The position numbers and the translations under genes were made by a program. The notes under the pieces are model-generated. The model was not told the DNA's origin. It did not search any database and was given only the letters and a program-made list of their open reading frames with translations. From positions 68,627 through 114,058 of the IMG/VR virus record IMGVR_UViG_3300042261_000976: a stretch of 45,432 nucleotides of DNA; one strand, written 5' to 3'. Of the stretch, positions 104 to 45,432 are shown piece after piece (within the stretch, counting starts at the first letter, position 1; each line of letters opens with the position of its first letter). The DNA is from a virus.

Positions 104-3100
104 ATGAAAGTATTTAATATAAATGATAATTATTTCAAATATCAAAAATGTTTGTCTGGAATTACATATCAATATGTTAATGAATTAGATGACATATACG
201 CCAAAAATCTTATGGTTGGCACTAATTATTGTTTATATTGTATGTATAACGAGTTTGACATCATAAATAACTTTATGGTGAACTTATATCAAGTGGACGT
301 TTGTAGCACTTTAAATTTGGATTTAACTAAAAGATATTTTGATATAGACGGTGTTTCTCTAAGAACAGGACACAGAGTAATTCTTGTTGGTCAAACAGAT
401 AAAACACAGAACGATATTTATAATGTTGATTCTAGAGGATACCTTATATTATCAGACGAATTGGCTGACACTGGAAAAACTTGGAGATATAAAGCCTATG
501 TTAAATTAGGAGGAAATAAAAGTAAACAATTTCACTTAAAAAATTCAGGTAATAGATTTCCATTGAAGGGCGAAAAAAAGGAATTTTTAGAGGGTCATGG
601 TTATATTATAAAGAGCATATTTAATTACAATTTATTTTACGATGGACCTGTAAATCCAAAATTGATTTTTACTGATTATGAACTGGCTAGAATATCAGTT
701 AATAAAAACTACGAATTATACGATGGTTTCTATTTACCACTATTTATCACTGGTGATACTATTGATATTAAATATCATAACAGTGATTATATAATAAAAG
801 TAGATAATAATAATTCTAAATACATTTATACTGGGGTTACTTTAAGAAATACTGTTCTAAACACTGGAAGTACGGATATGTGGGGAAATTACGGTTATGA
901 AACATTCATAAAAACTAATTCCACTATATGTTCAAACGCTAATGTTTACGATTATGTAAAATTCGAGATATCTGGCAATACAAGCTTATATCTAAAAACT
1001 TTTATAAAAAGAATAGATGATCCTTATATAATCATATCAGATTATATATCTGATAATATCTTAAATGATTATTATTCGCCTAATATATCTGGTGCTAGTT
1101 ATTATAACACAACAATCGATGATTTAACTTATCCAACTTCAGGATTATGGCTAACACAAACATATGATACTTTCTTACCATATCAAGGAGGGGAATGGGT
1201 ACTACTTGAGTCTGGCGCAACTTGGTATTTGACAGGACAGGTTATTTCATATACTGGTAATACTGGTGATATTCTTATAAATATAACATATTCCAGTGTT
1301 CCTATCGGAACTAATTTTCATTGGGTTGTATCTTTAATAAGTGAACCTACTTATTATAGTTTTACTAATTTGATGTATTCTGATATTATGGATGTTGAAA
1401 ATACAATTTTAGAATCATATTATTCTAAATATTTCGATATTGATGGGGCTGGAAAATTATACCCAGCAGAAAATCTTGATAATTTATATTTTGATTATGA
1501 TGGATTAACATTCTATTTTAATACTACAGGACAATCTTTTACTACAACAAATGATTATATAAAATACAATTTATATAATCATCTCAATAAAATAAATCCA
1601 TATTTATTTGATACCGGATATACTTTTTTGATTGATAAACAATTAAATGCGATTACTTTTACTTATGAATATTTCGATGAAAGACCAAACCCTTATATTT
1701 ATCCTAATACTATAGGTGATAGCAAAGGAACGCTTATAAAGATAATACCTTATATTTCAAGTTATGTGAATTATTTTAAAAATCACACATATGTTGCTTT
1801 GAGTGATAATACAGGAGAATATAAATCTCTTATAGTAGATCTTGTTCCAAATGAATATTTTGTCGTAGAAACATATAAATCCAATACAGGATTAACTCTT
1901 AATTATATAAAAACAATATACAATTTAAAAGAAATATCAGATATTCTTTATGATGTTTATATAAACGAAGAAAACTCATATTACAGAGTGAGAGATGACG
2001 ATATGAGAAGAAATATATGTAATGGTTACGCTTCATTTATAAGCGAGGATTTAGGAATAATAGATAATACGACCGCTTTTTTAATGCAAGATCCACAACA
2101 TAAATTCGTTCTTAAAATATACGATCCCGAGAACTCCTATAATGGTGGTGTCGTAAGATCTCCTTATGTTATAACTAGACTTGATATAACTATTCCTACA
2201 GGTGGTACTTCAGCCATATTAAAGGGTGAAGTTATGAATGATGGGGGATCAAATATAACAGAGAGAGGAATTTGTTATTCTCCAGACTCTATTAACTTTA
2301 CATGTGTTTCAGCAACGACTTTAGGATTAGGACCTTATACATGCAATATTTATCCTCTAACTCCATTATATACCTATTACTATAAAGCTTATGCTAAAAA
2401 TATTCAAGGAATTGGGTATGGCGAATTATATACTTTTACTACTTCCGATCCAAATTATACAGCTCCAACAATAACTACAGACTATGTAGTTCCATATTCT
2501 CATAAATTAACACCATATGCTGATATTGTAGATATTGGATGGCTTCCTATACTAGAGAGAGGATTTATATATCAAACAGGAATAACTACACCCACTTTGA
2601 TAGATGATTTAGTTATTGTATATCTTCCAGAAAATGGTCAAACTGGTAGTTTTTATACTGATTTGACTGGGCTTACACATTCTACAATGTATTCTATAAA
2701 TAGTTACGCTATAAATATTTGCGGCACAACTTATGGGGATACTTATCATTTAGAAACATTATATCCTTCTCCTCCTGTTATAAATACAGTAGGATATACT
2801 AATGTTACATACAATAGCATGGATGTTATATGCAATTTAATAAGTAATGACGGAGAACTAACAGATCCAATTCACGGAGTAAACCAGATGGGGGTTGTTT
2901 ATTCGAATGATCCTGTTAATTTACCAACAACAGGAAATACTGTAAGACCTTATACTCCTATATCATTCGGACAATTTATAGTAAATTTAACTGGTTTAAC
3001 TTATAGTCAAAATTATTATATTAGAGCATACGCTATGAATACTTTATATTCCGGAAACACAACCGTTTATGGTACTATGATTTTTCCACCTCCTGCAACA

Positions 3101-5023
3101 TTACCTTTGCCAGTGGCTCCTACTTTAACCAATAGTCTTTATAACTATTCAACTTATTATGCTAATGTATCAAATATATTATCATCAAATGGTGGTTCTC
3201 CCATAGTTTCTTTAGGATTATACTACGCGACCGGGGACACTGTAACGACTTCAGATACATTTTTATCAGCTAGTGGAACTACTAGTTGGATGAGTAATTT
3301 AACAGGGCTAACTGATTCTACTAAATATAGTTATATGGCTGAAGCTGTCAATTTATATGGATTGAGTGGTTATACTACAGTTACAGGATTTACTACATTA
3401 CCAATTCAAACAGCCCCAACAGGAGTAACATTAAATTGGATAACAGCTACACCTACTGGGGCAACTTTAACAGGTAATGCTATATTTGATGGGTATTCTC
3501 CAATAATAAATAAAGGAATTTTATATTCCACCTCTCCATCTCCAACTACTCCAGTTTGGAGCGGTGGATCTGGAACAGGTATGTGGACATCAAGTATAAC
3601 TGGATTAACAGTAAGTACGACTTATTATGCTAGGGCTTATGCTACTAATTCTATAGGAACAACTTATAGTAGTCCTGATGTTACATTTACAACACCATCT
3701 GGAAATTTACCACCATCTTTCAGTATAACTAGTCATACTGTAGGTGGAATATCTACTACAACAGCTACTGTAACAGCAAACATTTTAAGCGATGGCGGAG
3801 CGACAGTAACGGATAGAGGTATATGTTTCGGTTTAGTGACGCCATCAACTTGTTGGAATGGTGGGACAGGTGCTGGTATATATTCAGTTATATTGTCAGG
3901 ATTAACTTTAGGAACTACATATTATGTCAAAGCATATGCTACAAATTCAGAAGGAACTACATATACATCAACTATTAGTTTTAATACTTCATCTATGGTT
4001 GTACCAACTGTTACATTAGATAGTGTAAGTGATATAACTTTGACTGGAGTCACATTGAATAGTAATGTAGTTAGTGATGGATATTCTCCAGTTATTGCTA
4101 GAGGATGTTTAGTAGATGATGGAGTAACTCCAGTTTACTGGCCGAACGGAACAGGAACAGGAGTATTTGTTACTGCAATAACAGGATTAACTCAAAACAC
4201 ATCTTATACTGGGATTTCATATGCTGAAAATTCTATAGGCACTGCTTGGAGTGATTATAAATATTTTAACACTTTAGTAGAAAATGACGTGTCTGTATCT
4301 GTAGATATATTGAGCGCATCTTCGGCTAGTCCTTATTTATATCAGGTAGGAGATTCTAAAAATGATTTAATTGTAAAAGTAGAAATAACAACAATAAATG
4401 AACCTCCATCAAATCTATTTGATGGTGATGCTACTTTTACGTCTGGTATTACTGTTATGACATGGGGAAGTGGAGTTAAAACAATAAATAATTCAGCTAG
4501 TCCTTTTACTTATGCTCCTCTAACAACTGAAACTAAATATTTCATAGCTAATGAAAATTGTGGAGTACCAACAGAATCTAGAACAGGTTCAGTAAGAATA
4601 GATGCTGTATATCCATATCTAACTTGCAATCGTTCTGTTAGCAATCCTATGCCGCCATCTAATTCTACTATGGCAACTTGGTGTAGTAGTGGAAGTTTCT
4701 ATACTGGAATGTTCCCATTAGGAAACGAACCGATGTTAAAGAAAATAGAACTGCCTTCTTCAAGTAAAACATATAATTATTATATTTCTAATAATAAGAA
4801 TGTGATATATTTCGCTTGTAAAGCTGATCAAACTGTCACTTCTTTATCTATTGTAAATTCTTTAGGACAAGAAATTAAGAAGCCTTGGAATGAAGTAGTG
4901 CAATGGTTAAGTTATTCTATGTCATCTTCTGGTTTAGCAAATAATTGGAATGTGCCTTATAATATTTATGGATTTATGGTCACTAATAATTTAGGTTCAA
5001 TATATGTAACATATAATTTTTAA
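104..5023 (+). CDS. Giant (1639 aa) structural protein carrying many tandem FN3/Ig-like beta-sandwich repeats; likely virion surface, fibre or decoration protein
   Basis: Repeated ~90-aa units with the signature ...DGG..I(T/L)(D/E)RG(I/F)C(Y/F/W)S...G.G.(Y/F)...(I/L)(T/S)GL...T.YY.(R/K)AYA.N..G..Y(G/S), which matches the FN3 F-strand pattern Y.F.V.A.N..G.S. S/T/G/Y/N-rich composition typical of phage fibre or adhesin proteins. The ATG at 104 begins a 4.9 kb uninterrupted frame. Confidence 0.5.
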   Translation: MKVFNINDNYFKYQKCLSGITYQYVNELDDIYAKNLMVGTNYCLYCMYNEFDIINNFMVNLYQVDVCSTLNLDLTKRYFDIDGVSLRTGHRVILVGQTDKTQNDIYNVDSRGYLILSDELADTGKTWRYKAYVKLGGNKSKQFHLKNSGNRFPLKGEKKEFLEGHGYIIKSIFNYNLFYDGPVNPKLIFTDYELARISVNKNYELYDGFYLPLFITGDTIDIKYHNSDYIIKVDNNNSKYIYTGVTLRNTVLNTGSTDMWGNYGYETFIKTNSTICSNANVYDYVKFEISGNTSLYLKTFIKRIDDPYIIISDYISDNILNDYYSPNISGASYYNTTIDDLTYPTSGLWLTQTYDTFLPYQGGEWVLLESGATWYLTGQVISYTGNTGDILINITYSSVPIGTNFHWVVSLISEPTYYSFTNLMYSDIMDVENTILESYYSKYFDIDGAGKLYPAENLDNLYFDYDGLTFYFNTTGQSFTTTNDYIKYNLYNHLNKINPYLFDTGYTFLIDKQLNAITFTYEYFDERPNPYIYPNTIGDSKGTLIKIIPYISSYVNYFKNHTYVALSDNTGEYKSLIVDLVPNEYFVVETYKSNTGLTLNYIKTIYNLKEISDILYDVYINEENSYYRVRDDDMRRNICNGYASFISEDLGIIDNTTAFLMQDPQHKFVLKIYDPENSYNGGVVRSPYVITRLDITIPTGGTSAILKGEVMNDGGSNITERGICYSPDSINFTCVSATTLGLGPYTCNIYPLTPLYTYYYKAYAKNIQGIGYGELYTFTTSDPNYTAPTITTDYVVPYSHKLTPYADIVDIGWLPILERGFIYQTGITTPTLIDDLVIVYLPENGQTGSFYTDLTGLTHSTMYSINSYAINICGTTYGDTYHLETLYPSPPVINTVGYTNVTYNSMDVICNLISNDGELTDPIHGVNQMGVVYSNDPVNLPTTGNTVRPYTPISFGQFIVNLTGLTYSQNYYIRAYAMNTLYSGNTTVYGTMIFPPPATLPLPVAPTLTNSLYNYSTYYANVSNILSSNGGSPIVSLGLYYATGDTVTTSDTFLSASGTTSWMSNLTGLTDSTKYSYMAEAVNLYGLSGYTTVTGFTTLPIQTAPTGVTLNWITATPTGATLTGNAIFDGYSPIINKGILYSTSPSPTTPVWSGGSGTGMWTSSITGLTVSTTYYARAYATNSIGTTYSSPDVTFTTPSGNLPPSFSITSHTVGGISTTTATVTANILSDGGATVTDRGICFGLVTPSTCWNGGTGAGIYSVILSGLTLGTTYYVKAYATNSEGTTYTSTISFNTSSMVVPTVTLDSVSDITLTGVTLNSNVVSDGYSPVIARGCLVDDGVTPVYWPNGTGTGVFVTAITGLTQNTSYTGISYAENSIGTAWSDYKYFNTLVENDVSVSVDILSASSASPYLYQVGDSKNDLIVKVEITTINEPPSNLFDGDATFTSGITVMTWGSGVKTINNSASPFTYAPLTTETKYFIANENCGVPTESRTGSVRIDAVYPYLTCNRSVSNPMPPSNSTMATWCSSGSFYTGMFPLGNEPMLKKIELPSSSKTYNYYISNNKNVIYFACKADQTVTSLSIVNSLGQEIKKPWNEVVQWLSYSMSSSGLANNWNVPYNIYGFMVTNNLGSIYVTYNF

Positions 5024-16098: not shown

Positions 16099-16620
16099 AT
16101 GGGATATAGAGCTAAACCAAATTCACCAAAAAGAGCAGACGGTAAAGATAAATACAATCAAGGTCCATATCATTTAATAAATCCAGGCAAATATCTCGGA
16201 GATCCTGAATGTATATGGTATAGAAGTGGTTGGGAATATAAAATGTATTTTTTCCTAGATAATGAACCAAGAGTTGTTCATTGGAACGTAGAAGGAATGA
16301 CTATTCCATACGAAATACAAGTAAATGAAAAATGGGAAACTAGGAGATATCATCCAGATTTTTACGCAGAAATTCAACAGCTAGATGGTTCTTTAAAAAA
16401 AGTAGCAGTTGAAATTAAACCGCATAAAGAAACAGTACCTCCAGAAATGCCTAAAAAAATAACAGCTAAATCATTAGAAAACCACGAATATAGAATGAAA
16501 TTATTTCTTATAAATTTCAATAAATGGAAAGCAGCCAAGGCATTTTGTAACAAAAGAGGAATAGAATTTCATGTGATGGATGAAACATTTTTTAATGATC
16601 ATTCTGTGAAAATATTTTAA
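16099..16620 (+). CDS. PD-(D/E)xK nuclease-fold protein (TnsA-like endonuclease domain)
   Basis: Motif ...E.K.YF.L......V..W.......YHPDFYAEI......KKVAVEIKP...: an Asp in YHPDF and an E-x-K in VEIKP with TnsA/restriction-endonuclease-like spacing. Confidence 0.3.
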   Translation: MGYRAKPNSPKRADGKDKYNQGPYHLINPGKYLGDPECIWYRSGWEYKMYFFLDNEPRVVHWNVEGMTIPYEIQVNEKWETRRYHPDFYAEIQQLDGSLKKVAVEIKPHKETVPPEMPKKITAKSLENHEYRMKLFLINFNKWKAAKAFCNKRGIEFHVMDETFFNDHSVKIF

Positions 16621-16623
16621 TCT

Positions 16624-17382
16624 ATGACAGAAACATTCGCGACATATTGTTACGCATTAATGGGTCAATACAATAATAACATGAAAAAATTGGCCGATGA
16701 TTCTACTGAAATGATATTTAATTTAGTTTTAAAAAATCCAAATTTACAAATCAGAAGACCTAAAAATTATATCATAACTATAGGCAAATTTTATATCATT
16801 CAATATGATTATAATGGTAATAAAATATGGTGTCCTATTCTTGTTATAGATGATAGATATAATACAGAATTACAAAAAAGAATTTTATACGCTGTAAATT
16901 TCGATTACCTACCTTATAGATATAAAATACTTTTTATTGATAAACTATTTTCGATGTTTAAAACAGAAATACAAAAACATAAAGAAAATAATGATAAAGG
17001 AAATCTTGTTGATGAAGAAAATCCATTAAAAATTAATTTTGAATCAGTATATAAAACACTAAAAACTAATGGCGGATTTAATTATTGTATAACAGCTTTC
17101 GATTATACTAAGATAGTTGGTATAAAACTTGGAGATCCTAAAATATATGCTGTTTCTACTACTATAGTAAATAGATTAATTTTCATAGATACAAAAATAA
17201 TCAATAAGAGAGTTATGATGGATGCTCTAAAAGAAACAGACATAGAAATAGAAAAAGAAAAGTTATCTAAAATTTTAGAGGCTTATGAGAAAACGGCTTT
17301 TGATTATGAAAATGATGTTAAGGAATATTATGAACAACTTCGACAATTAGAAAACCATTATAAAATATATGAAAATCAATAA
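16624..17382 (+). CDS. Hypothetical protein (252 aa)
   Basis: Start 4 nt after the previous stop. No recognisable motif. By position (just upstream of the portal) it could be neck or head-associated, but this is unsupported by sequence. Confidence 0.3.
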   Translation: MTETFATYCYALMGQYNNNMKKLADDSTEMIFNLVLKNPNLQIRRPKNYIITIGKFYIIQYDYNGNKIWCPILVIDDRYNTELQKRILYAVNFDYLPYRYKILFIDKLFSMFKTEIQKHKENNDKGNLVDEENPLKINFESVYKTLKTNGGFNYCITAFDYTKIVGIKLGDPKIYAVSTTIVNRLIFIDTKIINKRVMMDALKETDIEIEKEKLSKILEAYEKTAFDYENDVKEYYEQLRQLENHYKIYENQ

Positions 17383-17419
17383 AAACATTTTTGACATAAA
17401 AGATTTTATATATAGATAC

Positions 17420-17686
17420 ATGAAAACTTTTGAACAATTTGAAATTGATCCTTATGGTGAAGAAAATTGGAACGAAAAACAACCAAGATATGAAATTGGA
17501 GATGGAATAAGAATTAATGGATTGTTTCTAAGAATTTCTAGTTATAGAATGAGAGATGATGGTTATTACTGGTATGATTTAGAAGATGAAAGAAACTATA
17601 TAAGTAGAAGAGAGGATGTATTGAATCATATTAAACATCCTGAATGGTCGATTCAGAAATGTCTTAACCCATCAATAGAGGATTAA
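17420..17686 (+). CDS. Small protein with CTS-like N-terminus immediately followed by the DPYGEENW motif; candidate internal head protein
   Basis: The track ORF starts at 17369 and overlaps the upstream gene. The internal ATG at 17420 gives MKTFEQFEIDPYGEENW..., closely matching the T4 capsid-targeting sequence MKTYQEFIAE, and removes the overlap. Confidence 0.4.
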   Translation: MKTFEQFEIDPYGEENWNEKQPRYEIGDGIRINGLFLRISSYRMRDDGYYWYDLEDERNYISRREDVLNHIKHPEWSIQKCLNPSIED

Positions 17687-17704: not shown

Positions 17705-19531
17705 ATGGCAAGTTACGATCGATATAGAGGAAATCAAAATCAAGCTGGTACAAATACCACTAATTTTGGTTTGTTCAATAGAATATTAAGAGGACTTTCT
17801 ACCATGTTTGGTGGATTGGAATATAATGATATGCGTATTAGAAATTCATATGCTATTGGAGTACATGAAGAAACAACAGATGTTCTTTATCAACCAAATA
17901 GTTCTAATATGTATGATTTATTTACTAAGAAAACTATAGCAAGATTCTTAGACAAAAAATCAATCGCTTATCTAGATAGAACATATTTAGATAAAAGAAA
18001 AATCCTAAGACAATATTCTATAAAAGATGAAATTAAAGATTTCATAACTCAAATTGCCGATGAATGTATAATTTATGATGATAACAATAGATTTTGTTTT
18101 GTTAAAGATCTTCCAGACACATACGAACAAACTATAAGACAAAAATATCAAGAAACTTTTACTAAACTTATAAATACTTTTAATTTTAATGAGGGTCAAA
18201 CAGCGTGGAATTATCTTAAAAATCTTTTAATTGATGGTTATATTTCTTATGAAGTCGTCTATGATGATAAACAAAAAAATATTATAGATCTTGCCCCGAT
18301 TGATCCAATTACTTTAATTGTTGCTACTGATCCAAACACAAATACGATGATTTGGATTCAACATCCAGATAATCCGGCATTAAGAAGAATTTTATTGGAT
18401 TCACAAATTATTTATATTTCATATTCAAACAATAATGAATATGGAGAAACTTCTTATGTTGAAAATCTTATTCGTCCTTTCAATCAATTGAAAATGATTG
18501 AACAGGCTAGATTACTTTACAATATTAATCAAGCCTCTATTTATAAGAAATTTACAATACCTGTTGGAGGATTGACTCGTCAACAAGCAGAACAACAAAT
18601 AACAGAACTCATAGCTGAGTATCATGATGATGTTCAGTGGGATGAAAGAATGGGTACTGTAGCAATTAATGGGAGTACAAATATTCCTTTTAGTAAAGAT
18701 ATTTGGTTTCCTGAAGGCAATGCAGGTACTCCAAACGTAGAAATTTTACAACCAACACAAGTTAATTTAAATGAAGATATAGTTCTTCAATGGTTCTTTA
18801 AGATATTAAAAAGAGCTAGTAAATTACCATTTGAAAGATTTAATGAAGAAAATGGTGGTGGAGCCTATGCTTACGATTCAAACGCTCAAGTTACTAGGGA
18901 TGAAGTTAAATTTAAAAATTTCATCAATAGAATAAGAACTATATTTAAGGAAATTCTTCTTAAACCTTTGAAGATTCAAATGATTTTAGAATTTCCAGAA
19001 TTAAAAGACGATGTAGATTTTAATAACTCTATTAAACTTGATTTTATTTCTGATACATTATTTGAAGAATGGCGTCACCTAAAGAACTTAAATGAAAGAG
19101 CATCTATAGCCCAAACATTGAGTTCATCACTCCAAGATGCTGCTGGTAAACCTTATCTTAGCATAGAATGGATAGTTCGTCATATTATGAAGTTCACTGA
19201 TGCTGATATTGAAGAAAATAATAAATATAAAGCAATAGAACGTAAGATGATGGGTGGTATGGAAGGAGCCGAAGGCGGCGGTGAATTCGGAGGCGGCGGA
19301 GGCGGCTTCGGTGGTGGCGGTATGTCATTCGGAGGTGGCGGTGGAGCCCAATTCGGTGGCGGTGGAGCCCAATTCGGTGGCGGTGGAGCCCAATTCGGTG
19401 GCGGTGAATTCGGTGGAGCACAAGGCGGTGGAGCCCAATTTGGTGGGGCACAAGGAGCACAAGGCGGTGGAGCCCAATTTGGTGGAGCACAAGGCGGTGG
19501 TGGCGGACAATCACAAGCACCAACATTCTAA
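17705..19531 (+). CDS. Portal protein (T4 gp20-like) with unusual C-terminal Gly-rich repeat tail
   Basis: By-eye alignment to T4 gp20: VTRDEVKFKNFINRIRTIFKEILLKPLKIQMIL vs [33 protein letters not shown], plus a block matching around YRITRAPDRR.../TGNMEDIRWF. Gene order portal, protease, MCP. The last ~90 aa are GG(E/A)QFGGGG repeats. Confidence 0.8.
   Translation: MASYDRYRGNQNQAGTNTTNFGLFNRILRGLSTMFGGLEYNDMRIRNSYAIGVHEETTDVLYQPNSSNMYDLFTKKTIARFLDKKSIAYLDRTYLDKRKILRQYSIKDEIKDFITQIADECIIYDDNNRFCFVKDLPDTYEQTIRQKYQETFTKLINTFNFNEGQTAWNYLKNLLIDGYISYEVVYDDKQKNIIDLAPIDPITLIVATDPNTNTMIWIQHPDNPALRRILLDSQIIYISYSNNNEYGETSYVENLIRPFNQLKMIEQARLLYNINQASIYKKFTIPVGGLTRQQAEQQITELIAEYHDDVQWDERMGTVAINGSTNIPFSKDIWFPEGNAGTPNVEILQPTQVNLNEDIVLQWFFKILKRASKLPFERFNEENGGGAYAYDSNAQVTRDEVKFKNFINRIRTIFKEILLKPLKIQMILEFPELKDDVDFNNSIKLDFISDTLFEEWRHLKNLNERASIAQTLSSSLQDAAGKPYLSIEWIVRHIMKFTDADIEENNKYKAIERKMMGGMEGAEGGGEFGGGGGGFGGGGMSFGGGGGAQFGGGGAQFGGGGAQFGGGEFGGAQGGGAQFGGAQGAQGGGAQFGGAQGGGGGQSQAPTF
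19254..19500 (+). repeat. Tandem imperfect ~24-bp repeats (GGTGGAGCCCAATTCGGTGGCGGT) encoding a Gly/Ala/Gln/Phe-rich portal tail
   Basis: Directly visible repeat of GGAGCCCAATTCGGTGGCGGT units. Locally GC-rich. Generates three spurious overlapping ORFs in other frames. Confidence 0.7.
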
Positions 19532-19542
19532 ATATAAAAAAA

Positions 19543-19568
19543 CCTCTGATTTATCAGAGGTTTTTTTA
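19543..19568 (+). terminator. Rho-independent terminator after the portal gene
   Basis: CCTCTGAT-TT-ATCAGAGG hairpin followed by TTTTTTT, 12 nt after the portal stop. Confidence 0.75.
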
Positions 19569-19638
19569 TTCAGTTCCAAAATGGAAAAAAAAGAGTTTTT
19601 TAGGTTAATATATATCAATAAAATAAAAGAGCCTAAAC

Positions 19639-22113
19639 ATGTATTATAAAAATGTTTTAATCATTGAAAATTCAACAAATGGCTTAAAAAAACTAAACGA
19701 ATCCATAGCTCCTTCCGGTAAAAAGCAATATATACTGGGCGGTATTTTCACGGAATTTAACGTTAAAAATAGGAATGATAGGATTTATCAAGCGGATAGA
19801 TTTTTGCCACATTTGGATGAATTGTTAGAAAGAAAAAAGACTCTGGGTGTTATATATGGTGAATTTGATCACCCGGATGTTTTTGACACTAGTTTGTCTA
19901 GGGTATCTCATACGGTTGAAAAGTGTTTCTTTGTCAGAGAAAAAAATAGAGTAGATGGTGAAATTAGATTACTAAATACTCATTGGGGTAGAGAAGCACA
20001 AGCATTAATCGATGATGGATGCCCAATTTTTGTTTCTTCACGTGCCGCCGGTGTAACTGAGTCGAATGGTGAAGTAACTATTAAAAAACTATTTACATAC
20101 GACGCAGTTGCTGACCCTGGGTTTAGTTCTGCGAAAATGGAACTTCGCACCTTAAATGAATCGCTAGGATTTAACGAGAGTGCCAACTTTAGGATATATG
20201 ATATATCCGACGAGTCAAAAATAAACGAGTTGTTCAATATGGATAAAAATGAATTTGTAACCAAAGAACAGATGGAAAAGTACTCAAATTATTTGACCGA
20301 GCAAATCACAAAAACAAAAAGTGAAATTAATGAAGCCATCCAAAAGGGAGACTTCGATCCAGCAAAGTTATCTGATTTATATGACAAGTATGATTCCTTC
20401 CAGGAAGGCTTCAAGAAAATAGCTTCCTATCTTGACTACTTAGCAGAAACAATGCAAGTCTTAGTCCAAGAAAACAAAAAAATCAAGAAAACAAACGAAA
20501 AATTAGAAGGCAAATTAGATAGAACAAAAGCTAAAACAGAAAAAATTATTGAACATAATGACTATTTAGCTGGAGAACTTGAAAAAGCCATCGGGTACAC
20601 AGAAAAAGCCATCGGGTACACAGAATATGTAGCTGAAGCAGTTGACAAATCTATTGATTATTCAAATTACATAGCTGAGACATTAGATAAATCTATTGAT
20701 TTCTCTGAATATATCGCAGAAAACGTTGATAATACAATTAAATATTCTGAATATATCGCTGAAAATCTTGATAAATCTATTGACTATTCTGAGTATGTTG
20801 CAGAAAATCTAGAAAAGAATATCGCATATGCTGAATATATTGCAGAGCATGTTGATAATAACATCAAATATGCTGAATATATCGCTGAACATGTCGACAA
20901 TAATATTAAATATGCTGAATATATAGCAGAACACGTCGATAACAGTATCAAATATACAGAATATGTTGGAGAACAATTAGATAACAGTATTAAGTATTCA
21001 GAATACATTGCTGAAAATCTAACTGATTCTATTGCCTATGGTAATTACTTAGCAGAAGCAATTGACAAGAATGTTGAGTACGGTAAGTATCTCGCAGAAA
21101 AATTAAATAGTGGTTCATTTGGAAGATTAAACGAACAAGTACAACCACCAGCACAAAAAATGGGTAACTTCAAGACCGATTCAGTAGCCAAATACTATGA
21201 TGAAAATGAGAACGATATGACTCAAGCACAACCAGTACAGGGAGCTCAAGCACAAGGTGCACAACCAAGAATGGCTCAACCAGTACAAGGTCAAGCTCAA
21301 CCAAGAGCCCAAGCCCAAGCTCAACAAGTACAGGGTATGGATTTAGAAGGTGAAGAAAGTGAGGATATGGATGTTCAAGGAGTAAATGCTGAAGAAATTC
21401 AAGACATTGATGATAAGGCAGAACTCACTCCAGGTCAAGTTGTCAAGATTGATGACGACAAAACAGGTGAAATTTTAGCAGTTAATGCTGATAATGGAAT
21501 AGCTGTTGTTAAATTATCTGACACAGGTGAAGTCCAAGAGATTCAAGAATCCAGATTATCTATCATAGGTGATAAGATTTATGAATCAGAAAACACATTA
21601 AAGAAACTAATATTAAAGCAAATAAATGAGTCCAAAAAACGTGAGGCATCGAAAGATAACGAACCTCATTTCTTACTTTTCTTAACTGAAAAGAAAAAGG
21701 CTGCTTATTACAACCTTTCACAACAGGATAAAGAAAAAGTAATCGTTGCAATGAACGAAAGCAAAGGTTATACAACAGAAAGTGAAGTTCTCGCTATCAT
21801 GGCTAAAGCATTAACTACAGCCACAAGAAGTTTTAATGAGACGTTGATCGACAATATCCCAGGCGATCTAAGACCAATATGGGAAAGTTTACGTCCCGAG
21901 GTTCAAGGTAGTATTATAAATAGTGCGCAATTCTATACTAATTTGACAGAGGATAAAATGGAAAGTTTCTGGAATTCTAGAGACCTTCATAAATATGCAA
22001 AGAAAAACATGGGTAAAGTGACCTTGTTAACAGAAAGTAATAACAAATTTGATAACACTAAACTCTCTGATGATCTTGTAGATGCATATTTAAAAAGAAT
22101 TAATCAAAGATAA
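19639..22113 (+). CDS. Prohead protease (T4 gp21-like, N-terminal ~200 aa) fused to a long scaffold/core-like C-terminal extension
   Basis: GGIFTEFNVKNRNDRIYQ vs T4 gp21 EGIFLQAEVVNRNKRLYP; GEFDHP vs GELNHP (catalytic His); FVSSRAAGV vs GVSSRGLG (catalytic Ser). The C-terminal 600 aa hold coiled-coil tandem repeats (EYIAENVDNSIKYSEY, ~10 copies), a Q/A-rich tract and an acidic region, i.e. a gp22/scaffold-like character. Confidence 0.75.
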   Translation: MYYKNVLIIENSTNGLKKLNESIAPSGKKQYILGGIFTEFNVKNRNDRIYQADRFLPHLDELLERKKTLGVIYGEFDHPDVFDTSLSRVSHTVEKCFFVREKNRVDGEIRLLNTHWGREAQALIDDGCPIFVSSRAAGVTESNGEVTIKKLFTYDAVADPGFSSAKMELRTLNESLGFNESANFRIYDISDESKINELFNMDKNEFVTKEQMEKYSNYLTEQITKTKSEINEAIQKGDFDPAKLSDLYDKYDSFQEGFKKIASYLDYLAETMQVLVQENKKIKKTNEKLEGKLDRTKAKTEKIIEHNDYLAGELEKAIGYTEKAIGYTEYVAEAVDKSIDYSNYIAETLDKSIDFSEYIAENVDNTIKYSEYIAENLDKSIDYSEYVAENLEKNIAYAEYIAEHVDNNIKYAEYIAEHVDNNIKYAEYIAEHVDNSIKYTEYVGEQLDNSIKYSEYIAENLTDSIAYGNYLAEAIDKNVEYGKYLAEKLNSGSFGRLNEQVQPPAQKMGNFKTDSVAKYYDENENDMTQAQPVQGAQAQGAQPRMAQPVQGQAQPRAQAQAQQVQGMDLEGEESEDMDVQGVNAEEIQDIDDKAELTPGQVVKIDDDKTGEILAVNADNGIAVVKLSDTGEVQEIQESRLSIIGDKIYESENTLKKLILKQINESKKREASKDNEPHFLLFLTEKKKAAYYNLSQQDKEKVIVAMNESKGYTTESEVLAIMAKALTTATRSFNETLIDNIPGDLRPIWESLRPEVQGSIINSAQFYTNLTEDKMESFWNSRDLHKYAKKNMGKVTLLTESNNKFDNTKLSDDLVDAYLKRINQR
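20560..21070 (+). repeat. In-frame tandem repeats inside the protease-scaffold gene (2 x 21 bp, then ~10 x 48 bp)
   Basis: GAAAAAGCCATCGGGTACACA x2, followed by repeated units of the form GAATATATCGCAGAAAACGTTGATAATACAATTAAATATTCT encoding (S/A)EYIAE(N/H)(V/L)D(N/K)(S/N)I(K/D)Y. Confidence 0.75.
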
Positions 22114-22190: not shown

Positions 22191-23975
22191 ATGAATTTTA
22201 TAGTTGACAGTGCGAAAGCAATAAAGAAATGGCAACCTATTCTCGACGCTCTTAGGGTAACTGATGATGACAAGAGAGCTTGGATGTCAGAGTATGCTGA
22301 AATGCATCAAATGAATGAAAATGTTGGCTATGCCACATTAAATCAAAAAGGTATGGGTCAAGTATTTGCTCCAGTAGTAGGTACAGTTCCAGGTGCAACA
22401 TGGCAAGATGGTCATGGCGCAATTGGTAGCGGTGACGTTGCTCAAAACCTCCTTCCAGTAGCTATGAAGATCGCTGCTCAAACAATCGGTTTGGATTTAG
22501 TAGCTGTTAAACCAACAGCATCACCAAGAATCGAGTTGTTATTCGTTGACTTCAAATATGACAACGCTTATGCAAACGATCCTAATCGTGAAGATATCGA
22601 TCCAAGACAAAGACCACTTGTTTTCAAATTAGCCACAAGCACAAGTGCTGGTGATTTAGCTTTAAAACAAGCTCTTCAATTACAACTCAGTCTTTTGAGT
22701 ATTCAAGAAAGAGTTGGTGGATTATCAAAAAGAACATGGGTTCACTTAGGAGCTGGTTGTACAGTTGCTCAATTAACTAATTTACCAGACAATTTACCAG
22801 CCGCTGGTTACTACAATTTTATGGAATTCTTAGGATTTTCAAGAATTGATGGACACCCAATGTATAGAATTTACAGACAAGCCGGTTTCTCAGTTGGTTC
22901 AATGACACCACAAGACGGTTCTGCATGGGATTCTACATTAAACACTTTCCCACAAACAGGAGCTATCACAGACGTTCTTATCGCAAGTGGTATTACCACA
23001 GTATCAGGAACATCAACATCTCAAGTCACAGGAAACACAGCAGCTGCTGGTGCAACTGTTGAATTAGTATCCTTACTCGAAGATCATATTCCAGGATTCT
23101 CCGCAGGTTGGACATCCAATATGGAAAATGGTTGGGAAGGCCCAATGACAAGATACCAAGATGAAAAAACCTATCCAGGTGTTATCGGTCCTGACGTATT
23201 TACAAAATCCGTCCAAGTTGGTGACATCGAAATCTCCTCAACATTGAAGAGAACCCAAATTGAAGACATCAAGGCTTCAACTGGTATGGATATTGTTCAG
23301 AAATTGGAAGGTGTTCTTATTAATGAATTAACTCAGGTTATTTCTAAGGAAATCGTAGGTAAAATCAGAAAATTAGCTCTTGCTAATAGAGATTCCTACA
23401 CAGCACCAAAAGCAACTGACGGTGTTACATGTAAATTCGACTTAAACGTTGACTCTTACATCGCATCACTTTCAAGTGGTACTTATGGTGGAGCAATGGG
23501 TGAAACAACTCACTCAATCCAAAGAAAGCTTATTGCTAAGATCAATAACGCTTCTAACTTCATCGCAACTGATGGTAGAATTGGACCAGCTCAATATTTG
23601 GTTACAAACGGTAACTTAGCTTCCGTTATCCAAGATATCGCTGGTTATACGATCAATCCAGTTAACGCTGGTAAATTAAACACCAACGGTCAACTTTATC
23701 CAATGGGTAATGTTGGACAGATTGCAATCTATGTAGATCCTTACATGAGATGGGATGATAACTTCATCTATATGGGTAGAAAGAATAGCGTTGACCAACC
23801 AGGTCTTCTCTTTATTCCTTACTTAATGGCTCAATCAATTAGCTTAATCAGTGAAGCTACCTGGGCACCCAGGATGTTAATTAGATCAAGATATGCAGTA
23901 GCTGATATCGGATTCTTCCCGGAAAAGCAATTCATGGCAATTAAAGTTACTGATAGTAACGGTGTTCTTATCTAA
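22191..23975 (+). CDS. Major capsid protein (T4 gp23-like, HK97-fold lineage)
   Basis: AKAIKKWQPILDAL vs T4 gp23 AELLNKWKPLLEG; AMKIAAQTIGLDLVAVKPTASPRIELLFV vs VRRAIPNLIAFDICGVQPMNSPTGQVFAL. Likely maturation cleavage at QMNE|NVGY, analogous to T4 FLTE|AEIGG. Followed by the strongest terminator in the window. Confidence 0.85.
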   Translation: MNFIVDSAKAIKKWQPILDALRVTDDDKRAWMSEYAEMHQMNENVGYATLNQKGMGQVFAPVVGTVPGATWQDGHGAIGSGDVAQNLLPVAMKIAAQTIGLDLVAVKPTASPRIELLFVDFKYDNAYANDPNREDIDPRQRPLVFKLATSTSAGDLALKQALQLQLSLLSIQERVGGLSKRTWVHLGAGCTVAQLTNLPDNLPAAGYYNFMEFLGFSRIDGHPMYRIYRQAGFSVGSMTPQDGSAWDSTLNTFPQTGAITDVLIASGITTVSGTSTSQVTGNTAAAGATVELVSLLEDHIPGFSAGWTSNMENGWEGPMTRYQDEKTYPGVIGPDVFTKSVQVGDIEISSTLKRTQIEDIKASTGMDIVQKLEGVLINELTQVISKEIVGKIRKLALANRDSYTAPKATDGVTCKFDLNVDSYIASLSSGTYGGAMGETTHSIQRKLIAKINNASNFIATDGRIGPAQYLVTNGNLASVIQDIAGYTINPVNAGKLNTNGQLYPMGNVGQIAIYVDPYMRWDDNFIYMGRKNSVDQPGLLFIPYLMAQSISLISEATWAPRMLIRSRYAVADIGFFPEKQFMAIKVTDSNGVLI

Positions 23976-24082: not shown

Positions 24083-24412
24083 ATGAATAACTTGAAGAGA
24101 TATAGAGAAATAAATGAGGATGTTGAAGAAAATAAATTCGTAAAATTTAATGGTAGGGATTCGTTTTCTAGAACTATCGAAGTAAAATCAGAAGATGCCA
24201 AAAACCAAAAGTTCCAAGACGAACTCAGTTACGCTATAGGTCTTATTAAAGAACATATAGAAGATGGTTTAGGTTATCAAATGAAAAAGAAATACAAAAT
24301 TAAAAATATGACTTTCAACGTAGACGATAAAGGAAAAGAATATTGTAAGATAGAATTCTTAGATACGAATACAAACGATATTGATCCTTACGGTGAAGAA
24401 GATTGGAGATAA
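24083..24412 (+). CDS. Small protein ending in the DPYGEEDW motif
   Basis: C-terminus is ...NDIDPYGEEDWR*. N-terminus MNNLKRYREINE parallels MNNLKTYEEF of ORF 38640..38975. A TATAAATC late-promoter-like motif lies ~40 nt upstream (24041..24048). Confidence 0.35.
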   Translation: MNNLKRYREINEDVEENKFVKFNGRDSFSRTIEVKSEDAKNQKFQDELSYAIGLIKEHIEDGLGYQMKKKYKIKNMTFNVDDKGKEYCKIEFLDTNTNDIDPYGEEDWR

Positions 24413-36366: not shown

Positions 36367-37143
36367 TTATTCATAGCTTTCTATTATGGCTCTTTTTTTA
36401 TCTGGAAGTGGGTTATCCTCTGTCCCCCTAATAATTGGAGCTTCCTCTTCTTCGTCAAGTTCTTCTTCCAAATCTTCTGTTACCAGTTTGATTTGTTTTT
36501 GATTAAAACTCTTCCAATATTTTATCCAACTTTCATTTGGCATTTCTCTTTTGGTCCCATCATTTGTTCCTTCTGGATTATCTTCTGTGCCAAAATCTGT
36601 AGTCCCTTCATCGGTGTTTATAGTATCATCATCGTCATCGTCTTCTTCGTCGTCCCCTAGTTCTATGTCTATATAATCAGGATCTTTATCTTCATCATCG
36701 TCAGGTGAAAAAGCATCTATAGGATCTTCTTCTTTACTTCCATAAACATCACCACCTATTGTAGTCTCATCAAATTCGTCAGATTCATATATTTTCTGTT
36801 TAGTTGCCCAAACTGGAGTTCCTTCAAACCCTTGTACTGTTGTAATAGGTTTTTCTTCTTTTACCTTTGTTAATTCTCTCATAACTTCTCTAAGAGAATA
36901 TTTCTTTATTTCTCCAGTCATTCTATCGGCTATAAATATGCTTTCATTTTGAATACTATCAATAAAACCATCTATTTTCTTGGTTTGTATATGTTTACCT
37001 ATTCTAAGAAAATCCATAGTTGGAATAGATCTATTTATAACCTGCTTTTTTGGTGCGCTTGGAAACAAATCAGTATCACCCCCTATTCCTTTACCTTTAT
37101 TTTCTTTACTTTCATTAACGAAAGCGTCGAATTTTTTAATCAT
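36367..37143 (-). CDS. Highly acidic protein with CTS-like N-terminus (candidate internal head protein)
   Basis: N-terminus MIKKFDAFVNE|SKEN fits the K-x-[YF]-x-x-F-[IV]-x-E pattern of T4 CTS MKTYQEFIAE. Poly-D/E tracts (DDDEDKDPDYIDIELGDDEEDDDDDD). Confidence 0.4.
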   Translation of the reverse strand: MIKKFDAFVNESKENKGKGIGGDTDLFPSAPKKQVINRSIPTMDFLRIGKHIQTKKIDGFIDSIQNESIFIADRMTGEIKKYSLREVMRELTKVKEEKPITTVQGFEGTPVWATKQKIYESDEFDETTIGGDVYGSKEEDPIDAFSPDDDEDKDPDYIDIELGDDEEDDDDDDTINTDEGTTDFGTEDNPEGTNDGTKREMPNESWIKYWKSFNQKQIKLVTEDLEEELDEEEEAPIIRGTEDNPLPDKKRAIIESYE

Positions 37144-38976: not shown

Positions 38977-39333
38977 TTATTTCTTACTTTTTAGATATTC
39001 TTCTATCGTATTAAAATCATTAAAGACATTTTCTGCTATATCTTTTATGTTTGGCATTCCGTCTATCATATTTTCTCTGATCTCTGTTATTGCTTCAAAT
39101 ACCTCATCATCATAATGTTCAAGAGCAGTCATAAATTGATCCATTTCTGGAATAGATTTTTCCAGGTCTTTACATATGAATTCTATAGTATCTCTGAGCA
39201 TAGATATATGTTGTTTTCTTTTTAATATATCTTTCAAAACTTCATCTATCTTTTCCTCGTAATTAATATCTACTCCAGATGATTGCCATTCTTCATTTTC
39301 GAATGTCTTATATGTTTTTAATTTCTTACTCAT
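38977..39333 (-). CDS. Small acidic protein with CTS-like N-terminus; paralog of the N-terminal domain of 39326..40210
   Basis: MSKKLKTYKTFENEE... Helical domain aligns with the upstream gene (LKDILKRKQHISMLRDT.../VEGLVRIKIYMQMLEDT...; DQFMTALEHYDDE/DAFMNALYSKDE). Confidence 0.4.
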   Translation of the reverse strand: MSKKLKTYKTFENEEWQSSGVDINYEEKIDEVLKDILKRKQHISMLRDTIEFICKDLEKSIPEMDQFMTALEHYDDEVFEAITEIRENMIDGMPNIKDIAENVFNDFNTIEEYLKSKK

Positions 39334-40210
39334 TTTTTATTTTGGCTATTCTTGGTTTTTTAGTTTTTGGTGGTTCCTTAGATAAATATTCTGAAGGAAC
39401 TCCTTCCATGTTTACACCATCTTTTGATGCTTTTATTGTAGCATCATATAAATCATAACAATCTTCTTTTTCTTTATTCTTTCTTATCACTGTACATTTT
39501 CTTCCATTATAAACTGACGCATGTCCTTTTATTCCAGAAATATAAACCACATCTCCACTCTTAAATTTATCAGAACTTTCTTCCCTTTTCTTAGTATATT
39601 GACTCATCTTTTTTTGTAGATCAGCTAGTGTTGGTTTTCTTTGTTCGTTTACTTTTCTTTTTCTTTTTAATTGATCTTCCGGTTCGCCTTTTACTTTCAT
39701 TATGTCAATATATTCATTACCATCGTCCTCATCTTCATCTTCTTCTGGTATATCTTCTTCTGAACCTTCGTCATCATCTTCTTCGTCATCGTCTTCTTCA
39801 TCTTCTTCTGTAGCGTTTTTACCTGATAATATTACACTCCAATTACCATCTATGTATTCTTTAATATTACTTAAAGTAGCATTCATTTCTTTGATATTAT
39901 CTACAGCTTCTGACATTTCAAAAGTAGTTGATAAATCTTCGACCAATCCAGCTAAAAATTCATCTTTACTATAAAGAGCATTCATAAAAGCGTCTATATT
40001 AGGTGGAAATTGTTTATCTAACATGTCATAAACTTTTTCAGTAGTATCTTCTAACATTTGCATATAAATCTTAATCCTAACAAGTCCTTCAACAATTTCT
40101 TTTATTCTGAAATTTATTTCTTCATCTGATGGATCTGGTCTATTTACGTTTTGACCGGTTTTCTCGTATGATTCAAAAGTTTTTATTTTTCTTGATATTT
40201 TCATGTACAT
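39326..40210 (-). CDS. Acidic protein with CTS-like N-terminus, poly-D/E tract and basic C-terminal domain
   Basis: MYMKISRKIKTFESYE... Tract EEDEEDDDEEDDDEGSEEDIPEEDEDEDDG. C-terminal KFKSGDVVYISGIKGHASVYNGRKCTVIRK (KOW/SH3-like appearance). Overlaps the downstream gene by 8 nt. Confidence 0.4.
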   Translation of the reverse strand: MYMKISRKIKTFESYEKTGQNVNRPDPSDEEINFRIKEIVEGLVRIKIYMQMLEDTTEKVYDMLDKQFPPNIDAFMNALYSKDEFLAGLVEDLSTTFEMSEAVDNIKEMNATLSNIKEYIDGNWSVILSGKNATEEDEEDDDEEDDDEGSEEDIPEEDEDEDDGNEYIDIMKVKGEPEDQLKRKRKVNEQRKPTLADLQKKMSQYTKKREESSDKFKSGDVVYISGIKGHASVYNGRKCTVIRKNKEKEDCYDLYDATIKASKDGVNMEGVPSEYLSKEPPKTKKPRIAKIKNE

Positions 40211-44335: not shown

Positions 44336-44341
44336 AATTTT

Positions 44342-45432
44342 TATTTATTTTATTATCCACCCGACACCACTCAAAGGAATAATATTAATTGATGTATTAT
44401 GATATTGAATGTCGAATGTCGAATATCCATTGATAAATTCTTGGTTGTATATATTAAAATTTACAATACTATATCCGATATTATTTATAGTATATCCATT
44501 TTGATTACTCGATGATATAGGCGACATATTTAAAATAATATTTGAATTTGACGTCCCTGAAGTTAATATGATGTCGTCGGTCGAAGTTAGATTAGTCGTT
44601 CCACTATATACAATTCTAAATGATGGAGGACCAGATGTCCCGGAACCATCTTTACCGGAAGAACCAGATGTTCCTGAATTTCCAGTAATTCCACTAGTAC
44701 CACTAGATCCAAAAAAACTACCATCTGCCCCGCTGGAACCACTAGACCCACTAATTCCATGAGTCCCAGCAATACCAGATGTACCACTGGATCCATCAGA
44801 CCCTGATGTTCCACTAGTGCCCGATGTTCCACTTAAACCACTAGTTCCACTAGTCCCTGATATTCCACTGGTTCCACTAGTTCCGCTAGTTCCTGATGTT
44901 CCTGATATTCCGCTGGTTCCACTAGAACCACTAAACCCCGATGTTCCACTCGTTCCTGATGATCCGCTAGTTCCTGATGATCCGCTAGTTCCTGATGATC
45001 CGCTAGTTCCTGATGATCCGCTAGTTCCTGATGATCCGCTAGTTCCTGATGATCCGCTAGTTCCTGATGTTCCACTAACTCCATGTGTCCCCGATATTCC
45101 ACTAGTCCCACTAGTTCCTGATGTTCCACTAGTCCCACTAGTTCCTGATGTTCCACTAGTCCCACTAGTTCCTGATGTTCCACTAGTGCCACTAGTTCCT
45201 GATGTTCCACTAGTGCCACTAGATCCACTAGTTCCTGATGTTCCACTAGTGCCACTAGATCCACTAGACCCAGATGTCCCACTAATACCATGTGTCCCCG
45301 ATATTCCACTAGTTCCTGATGTTCCACTAGTGCCACTAGTTCCTGATGTTCCACTAGTGCCACTAGATCCACTAGTTCCTGATGTTCCACTAGTGCCACT
45401 AGATCCACTAGACCCAGATGTCCCACTAATAC
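44342..45432 (-). CDS. Collagen-like (Gly-X-Y) repeat tail-fibre protein, 3' portion; the gene continues past the window end
   Basis: Minus-strand frame reads ...GSSGTSGITGNSGTSGSSGKDGSGTSGPPSF... with Gly at every third residue for more than 250 aa and no stop codons. It runs into the non-collagen C-terminal domain that the track lists as a separate 60-aa ORF (44345..44527). The track ORFs 44568..44762, 44587..44832 and 44833..45426 are the other frames of the same repeat. Confidence 0.6.

Follow-up and report, generated by a model that had tools for sequence, protein, structure and literature searches.

A glycine-rich C-terminal tail with a hydrophobic tip on a T4-type portal protein and its counterparts in huge phages

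The portal protein of phage T4, gp20, initiates assembly of the gp22 scaffolding core as well as of the gp23 shell (PMC7136217). The crown is the innermost domain of this portal (PMC4493910) and, as the site of contact with gp22, has been called 'a strong candidate' (PMC7136217). The last 8 residues of gp20 are disordered (PMC4493910), and green fluorescent protein (GFP) fused to its C-terminus sits inside the prohead and locks proheads in the unexpanded form (PMC10893049, PMC9958956). The terminase and the neck proteins bind the clip domain, at the external end opposite the crown (PMC9958956). Here we analyze a portal gene in a 45,432-nt stretch of viral DNA (IMG/VR record IMGVR_UViG_3300042261_000976, positions 68,627 to 114,058), which we call the window and in whose positions all coordinates are given. 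An earlier note on this DNA, made from the letters alone, had pointed to a Gly-rich extension of about 90 residues at the end of a gp20-like portal (19254-19531). We find a 92-residue tail that is retained in frame by close relatives, ends in a conserved hydrophobic tip and, judged from sequence, is an enlarged form of a short tail found across T4-type portals.

The portal gene and the elements of its 3′ end are the following.

17705..19531, + strand: portal protein gene, 608 aa with a TAA stop (Pfam PF07230, PHROG 213, T4 gp20 structures)
18005..19225, + strand: Portal_T4 core, residues 101-507 (Pfam match coordinates)
19199..19252, + strand: last helix of the crown domain, residues 499-516, immediately before the tail (AlphaFold2; aligns with the T4 crown end)
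19253..19513, + strand: Gly-rich disordered linker free of Lys and Arg, residues 517-603 (predicted local distance difference test score, pLDDT, ~30; composition)
19334..19406, + strand: 21-bp tandem repeat, 3.5 exact copies, encoding GGGGAQF (Tandem Repeats Finder, 100%, score 146)
19415..19494, + strand: 39-bp tandem repeat, 2.1 copies, encoding GAQGGGAQFGGAQ (Tandem Repeats Finder, 97%, score 153)
19514..19528, + strand: C-terminal tip QAPTF, residues 604-608, with Phe last (right-justified comparison of 120 tails)

The Pfam profile PF07230 (Portal_T4) matches residues 101-507 with 240.7 bits against a cutoff of 22.9 (E=3.3e-71), and PHROG 213, 'portal protein', matches the open reading frame (ORF) at 17705-19531 with E=1.8e-66. 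By phmmer, residues 250-509 align with residues 252-505 of the 524 residues of T4 gp20 in the structures 3JA7 and 6UZC (E~1e-27). These matches agree, and on their strength the ORF at 17705-19531 is a gp20-type portal, as the earlier note had it. The AlphaFold2 model, with a mean pLDDT of only 59, consists of long helices and a C-terminal helical crown. An identical protein (P0001) is present in the JGI collection.

We delimit the tail as residues 517-608 (nt 19253-19528) because the last crown helix stops at residue 516 and disorder is predicted beyond it; this extent agrees with the 19254-19531 noted earlier. Residues 519-608 have a pLDDT of ~30 and no predicted secondary structure, in agreement with the flexibility proposed earlier, and no Pfam domain was found in the tail. 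Its 92 residues include 50 Gly (54%), 10 Phe and 9 FG dipeptides, and they contain seven units of the form GGG(G)(A/E)(Q)F. Across the 96 residues after position 512, there are 2 Lys/Arg, both within the first 2 residues, and 4 Asp/Glu. The underlying DNA repeat had been described as having a period of 21-24 bp; Tandem Repeats Finder recovered the 21-bp period and no 24-bp period in the tail DNA, the second period being 39 bp. No other stop-free segment in any of the six frames of the window is Gly-rich, and the tail is therefore far beyond what chance would produce. Its GC content is 62%, compared to 31% for the window, because of its Gly and Ala codons.

Codon choice in the tail is also distinctive. 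GGC accounts for 15/50 Gly codons, compared to 36/408 in the other genes of this AT-rich genome, while TTC makes up 8/10 of the Phe codons and GCC 6/12 of the Ala codons. Amplification of a repeat unit explains part of this bias, but the corresponding tail in the huge-phage genome LR756501 also alternates GGT, GGC and GGA.

T4 gp20 itself carries an acidic extension of 19 residues (...EEESKEARFQDPDQEQEDF) with Phe at its end (EQEDF). Like the tail in the window, it occupies the homologous position directly past the last crown helix, is disordered, ends in Phe and lies in the prohead (PMC4493910, PMC10893049). The two differ in scale and composition: the T4 extension has 19 residues and no Gly, whereas the window portal continues for 99 residues past the same alignment point, 51% of them Gly, with tandem repeats. 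The earlier statement that T4 gp20 has no such tail is thus correct as to Gly and length and overlooks the short Phe-ended extension. From homology to T4, with its crown and the GFP fusions, we infer that the window tail would lie in the capsid interior, one of two locations that had been suggested; the other, the terminase docking site, conflicts with the binding of terminase to the external clip domain (PMC9958956).

Among 5.8 billion proteins searched, we found 120 relatives at 54-100% identity, drawn from JGI, ENA and Logan assemblies. Past a conserved ...ENNKYK motif, all 120 run on into a Gly-rich tail (median length 78 residues), and 119 of them read in frame through a comparable tail, the remaining one (P0113) being cut by the end of its contig. 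The tail is thereby conserved in related portals, a check that the earlier note had proposed. Pooled over the 120 tails, Gly accounts for 44% of residues, Gln and Ala for 11% each, Glu for 8%, Pro for 7% and Phe for 4%. The core is 11.6% Lys plus Arg; in the tails, these two lie almost entirely within the first few residues, with about half a dozen later ones among ~9,000 tail residues. The tails carry net charges between 0 and -22 (median -6). Because the tails are nearly free of Lys/Arg and neutral to acidic, the interaction with packaged DNA that had been envisaged is argued against.

When the 120 tails are right-justified, the C-terminus stands out. Phe closes 102 tails and Ile, Leu or Val another 12, and the entropy at this final position is 0.96 bits, compared to ~2.5 elsewhere. 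Gly occupies only 1-3% of each of the last three positions, compared to ~40-50% upstream. The tip motif differs by clade, being Q-x-P-T-F in relatives with at least 76% identity to the window portal, T-P-T-I at 67-73% and x-E-F at 54-66%.

The linker, by comparison with the core, turns over quickly. Among the nearest homologs, core identity is 85-96% and tail identity 52-70%, the latter figure being inflated by low complexity. Repeat units are lineage-specific, and in four loci (the window and the three below) the periods are all multiples of 3. Repeat content differs between relatives; repeat-number polymorphism was a check that the earlier note had proposed.

P0012 locus (L018): 36-bp repeat, 4.4 copies
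P0032 locus (L020): 21-bp repeat of another unit, 6.5 copies, encoding FGGGGDD
LR756501 (L001): repeats of 18, 12 and 27 bp

Aligned with the DNA of LR756501, the window shows gaps of 9, 9 and 3 nt; a further gap, of 1 nt, falls in the first segment, where the alignment is poor. We are close to certain of the existence of the tail, the retention of its frame, its conserved composition and tip, and its predicted disorder. Taken together, the sequence comparisons indicate selection on the reading frame, on composition, on the absence of basic residues and on the tip.

The closest public records are uncultured huge phages, listed here with the identity of their portals to that of the window.

LR756501 and LR756503: 735 kb, portal identity 90.7%
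LR756504, LR756502 and LR745206: 635-642 kb, portal identity ~50%
LR756500: 462 kb, portal identity 36%
Prevotella Lak megaphages: 540-550 kb, portal identity 31%

As the BLAST low-complexity filter hides the tail, we read the orthologous loci directly. The tails of all four portals with at least 50% identity are rich in Gly, Glu and Pro, and their ends are APTF, NFDF, EFEF and EFEF. Those of the Lak portals, when TAG is translated as Gln, are ~100 residues long, rich in Gly, Asp and Ser, and terminate in GGDFA or GGDFS, and the LR756500 portal has a shorter tail with the end ...TSGY. The portals of LR756501-504, LR745206 and the Lak phages thus resemble that of the window in being T4-type, in carrying Gly/acidic-rich tails of 65-102 residues and in having F at or near the end. 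They differ in the chemistry of the linker, with Pro and Glu abundant in the 630-640 kb phages and Asp and Ser in Lak; Gly and FG content are highest in the window and the 735 kb phage. With the full portal as query, tblastn gave 3 matching places in the record LR756501.1, and with the crown segment alone it gave 2, which hints at a second portal-like copy or fragment outside the L001 locus.

For the wider family, we carried out an exhaustive search of 1.84 billion cluster representatives with the core only (residues 1-512) and retained 109 portals at 25-45% identity whose alignment reached the crown end. Their tails are 6-116 residues long (median 49), contain 16% Gly and are net negative in 84% of cases. 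A hydrophobic final residue is found in 63/109, compared to a background of 14% (p=4e-26), and an aromatic one in 28/109, compared to 3.3% (p=2e-17). The portal of Aeromonas phage phiAS5 ends in ...DDPMEEF. Larger genomes tend to have longer tails among the 17 complete or near-complete genomes compared (Spearman rho 0.76, p=4e-4); since these genomes are not independent in phylogeny, we take this as no more than a trend. Genomes of 140-235 kb have tails of 16-62 residues with 0-19% Gly, and those of 540-735 kb have tails of 65-102 residues with 17-48% Gly.

The window portal shows both parts of the pattern, a low-complexity non-basic extension past the crown helix and a hydrophobic or aromatic end (...APTF). 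As far as sequence comparison can tell, its tail represents a 'linker plus tip' enlargement of the short acidic, hydrophobic-ended tail carried by most T4-type portals. Disordered portal termini are commonplace. Our full-text searches of the literature turned up no account of Gly-rich tails on the portals of huge phages, and we consider the 'linker plus hydrophobic tip' signature to be family-wide, previously unremarked and extreme in the phages with the largest genomes.

We propose a function, at a confidence slightly below even: the tails may be flexible tethers that do not bind DNA and that present a C-terminal anchor to a partner in the prohead interior, most plausibly the scaffold or core. 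Naming the scaffold or core as that partner is a guess, and we hold it to be a rather doubtful one. The genes directly downstream of the portal bear on this proposal.

19639..22113, + strand: prohead protease fused to a scaffold-like region, 824 aa (PHROG 207 'head maturation protease', E=1.6e-29, residues 4-236)
22191..23975, + strand: major capsid protein gene (PHROG 138 'major head protein', E=9.8e-21; PHROG 28442, E=1.1e-52)

Under this proposal, the 3′ end of the portal gene would encode a disordered crown extension of ~92 residues, twelve copies of which would project into the capsid interior. The linker would be a fast-evolving Gly/Ala/Gln stretch (Glu/Pro-rich in relatives), shaped by in-frame slippage of short DNA repeats. 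The tip, short and free of Gly, would offer its Phe and carboxylate to a pocket on an internal partner, for which the candidate is the scaffold or core, here possibly the protease-scaffold fusion encoded immediately downstream. Binding of the tip would help the portal to nucleate assembly of a very large head. Lacking Lys and Arg, the tails would not stick to the DNA of the filled head, and once the scaffold is gone, they would remain around the inner opening of the channel as an inert brush. A random-coil scaling law gives an estimated radius of gyration of ~29 Å and a mean end-to-end distance of ~7 nm for each tail, with a contour length of ~33 nm.

Several points weigh against the tether proposal. 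The tip motif is present in no other protein of the window. The tip differs between clades (PTF, PTI, EF), and a minority of the distant portals end in charged or small residues. The acidic T4 tail could act electrostatically and not via its terminal Phe, and the function could reside in the bulk of the linker and not in the tip. The correlation with genome size is confounded by phylogeny, since megaphage clades supply most of the long tails.

An unlikely alternative is that the tails form an entropic brush, cushion or headful sensor, in which the bulk of twelve non-basic chains keeps packaged DNA, or its end, from jamming the channel mouth or relays DNA pressure to the crown. Depletion of Lys/Arg and a neutral-to-negative charge suit a DNA-repelling polymer, the tails are placed on the crown at the channel mouth (PMC4493910), and in T4 the pressing of DNA on the crown and wing drives the headful transition of the portal (PMC12929629). 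The longest and most Gly-rich tails also belong to the largest genomes. A brush nevertheless leaves the Phe end (102/120) and the Gly-free last three positions unexplained, and the 19 residues of T4, which share the hydrophobic ending, are too short to make one.

More speculatively, the long Gly-rich tails may be an adaptation to very large heads, working either as size-scaled capture arms that nucleate a giant scaffold or inner core or as a cohesive FG or brush gate that senses filling and controls the passage of DNA and protein. In either form, the tip shared with T4 would mark the portal-core contact. We regard this extended version as quite unlikely.

The tail could also be a removable pro-peptide that serves assembly only, is cut off by the adjacent prohead protease and is gone from the mature virion. 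The neighboring gene does encode a prohead protease, Glu makes up 8% of tail residues, and between residues 510 and 566 the sequence has five (S/A/G)xE motifs (at 510, 518, 521, 525 and 566). Proteases of phiKZ-type jumbo phages cut after (S/A/G)-x-Glu motifs. The T4-type motif (L/I)xE, in contrast, occurs only once near the tail, as IEE at 502-504, so the several gp21-style sites that the earlier note had placed before the tail come down to this one. T4 gp20 has a similar IEE in the corresponding stretch, and a review of the T4 head does not list the portal among the gp21 substrates (PMC9958956). From the motifs alone, gp21-type cleavage of the portal is unsupported. We judge removal of the tail to be distinctly improbable, and it is compatible with the tether-and-anchor proposal, not opposed to it.

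There is a slim chance that the tail is tolerated junk, a dispensable unstructured C-terminus inflated by replication slippage and without function. Turnover is indeed very fast, the units are lineage-specific with some recent exact copies, and tail length in the family spans 6-116 residues. Neutral slippage, however, would not keep the frame and a comparable tail in 119 complete homologs, nor would it be expected to yield near-total exclusion of Lys/Arg and a Gly-free, Phe-ended tip.

That the FG repeats of twelve tails gel into a cohesive plug of the FG-nucleoporin kind, gating the portal channel from inside, we consider very unlikely. The window tail, with its 9 FG in 92 residues separated by low-charge Gly/Ala/Gln spacers, would suit such a plug, and many relatives have regularly spaced F, M or L. 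Internal tail chemistry varies, however, and many other tails are pure GGGAQ or GGGGQAQ with no hydrophobic residues, and aromatic residues are missing from the interior of many tails. FG content is not conserved either: the median per tail is 4 (range 0-9) in the clade with at least 76% identity and 1 in each of the other two clades, the minimum is 0, a value shared by many tails, and the window tail is the FG extreme within its own clade.

An artefact (frameshift or misassembly) or a DNA-level element such as a packaging or recombination site, to which a GC-rich island (62% compared to 31%) with exact tandem copies might point, is scarcely credible and effectively refuted by the comparative evidence, since no frameshift was found, independent assemblies carry in-frame tails in 119/120 relatives, and repeat units differ among relatives while protein composition and the tip persist; in-frame tails, changing repeats and a kept tip therefore exclude frameshift, misassembly and a purely DNA-level element.

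The head module runs in the order head-closure protein (16099-16620), two small ORFs, portal, protease-scaffold and major capsid protein. In T4, the gp21 protease and the gp22 scaffold are separate proteins, whereas in the window a prohead protease domain and a scaffold-like region are fused in one protein. Matches of the fusion gene (19639-22113) to Pfam S80 and S77 are weak. The gene contains 42-bp repeats at 20642-21020, which encode the 14-aa unit YSEYIAENxDxSIx, and its product has a Gln/Ala/Pro-rich stretch at approximately residues 524-563.

The portal-protease junction differs among loci. In L018 (2626-4257, - strand) and L020 (5773-7407, - strand), a gene for a 543-544-aa DUF7487 protein lies between the portal (P0012 and P0032, respectively) and the next gene, on the opposite strand. 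The gene beyond it, an unannotated ORF of ~800 aa, continues past the end of each locus and probably corresponds to the window protease-scaffold. The DUF7487 gene is absent from the junction in the window and in LR756501, suggesting insertion or deletion of a possibly mobile gene.

Other features of the window were noted in passing. Two ORFs that flank the head module (17369-17686, + strand, and 24083-24412, + strand) share the motif DPYGEE(N/D)W, which the 105-aa protein carries close to its N-terminus and the 109-aa protein at its C-terminus; no family match was obtained for either. Upstream of the module, the ORF at 104-5023 (+ strand, 1639 aa) has a weak PHROG 'head decoration' match (E=8.6e-06) and an Fn3-like domain below the Pfam threshold, and may encode a large decoration or fibre protein. 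The proteins encoded at 36367-37143 and 39326-40210 (both - strand) have no family match and contain long Asp/Glu-rich runs, e.g., EEDEEDDDEEDDDEGSEEDIPEEDEDEDDG. At 44336-45432 (- strand), running off the window end, a collagen-like G-X-Y frame (GTSGTSGSSG...) is followed by a non-repetitive C-terminal domain. An exact 144-bp duplication is present at 45162-45432, and the listed 197-aa ORF at 44833-45426, which is in a different frame from the collagen-like one, looks spurious.

The tail repeat was also said to produce three overlapping spurious ORFs. All three are present in the ORF list, and a hairpin follows the portal stop codon.

19194..19526, - strand: spurious ORF, 110 aa, low-complexity translation (ORF list)
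19254..19649, + strand: spurious ORF, 131 aa, extending into the start of the next gene (ORF list)
19325..19510, - strand: spurious ORF, 61 aa, over the repeat (ORF list)
19534..19569, no strand assigned: 16-bp hairpin with A-run and T-run flanks, terminator-like, 5 nt past the stop (RNA fold)

The extra frames are by-products of composition, open because the stretch is GC-rich, and long alternative open frames similarly lie over the tails of relatives (53-64% GC). The hairpin at 19534-19569 has a folding energy of -18.9 kcal/mol (z = -7.53), and 0/200 shuffled sequences were equally stable. Based on the fold, it could act as a terminator in both directions, and its place directly past the stop codon also speaks for a real, translated tail. 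A scan for consensus terminators past the portal gene reported nothing and missed this hairpin; we set that null aside because direct folding gave a strong hairpin.

These properties matter for detection. Annotation pipelines can be expected to call spurious ORFs over the tail repeat, BLAST masking hides the tail, and, as it has no Lys/Arg, the tail would be invisible to standard tryptic proteomics. For T4-type phages in general, the analysis points to a simple conserved element at the crown, a disordered, non-basic segment with a hydrophobic or aromatic end, as a candidate for the portal-gp22 contact. T4 has this element in a short form, and the phages with the largest known genomes have it at much greater length.

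Among known systems, the N-terminal 'whisker' of T4 gp20 is, like the tail, a flexible terminal segment of the portal, and it captures gp23, as shown genetically and structurally; it differs in lying at the other terminus, in having 6 residues and in contacting the shell and not the core (PMC7136217). The C-terminal barrel of the P22 portal is likewise a crown extension that reaches the capsid interior (PMC4493910, PMC4992974). That barrel is a 15-nm alpha-helical structure, whereas half of the window tail is Gly with no predicted secondary structure, and the two portal families are unrelated at the sequence level. We considered a P22-type helical barrel for the window portal and rejected it, residues 517-608 having no secondary structure, a pLDDT of ~30 and 54% Gly. 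Phage G, the only megaphage in culture, offers no comparison, its portal being lambda-like.

Outside phage portals, the FG-nucleoporins resemble the window tail in combining FG dipeptides with low-charge spacers (9 FG and 4 charged residues in the 92 residues of the tail), but they belong to an unrelated system, and FG is not conserved among the portal relatives. The ribosomal stalk proteins P1/P2 and aP1 offer a functional likeness only, being unrelated to the portal: multiple flexible Ala/Gly-rich hinges on one assembly, each with a conserved hydrophobic or acidic C-terminal tip that recruits factors, raise the capture radius and the local concentration of partners. The C-terminal tail of the bacterial single-stranded DNA-binding protein (SSB) likewise combines a variable G/Q/A/P linker with a short Phe-ended tip, which in SSB docks partners. 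There is no homology between the two, and the SSB tip (...IPF) is acidic whereas the window tip QAPTF is not; relatives of the window portal end in xEF, and T4 gp20 ends in EDF.

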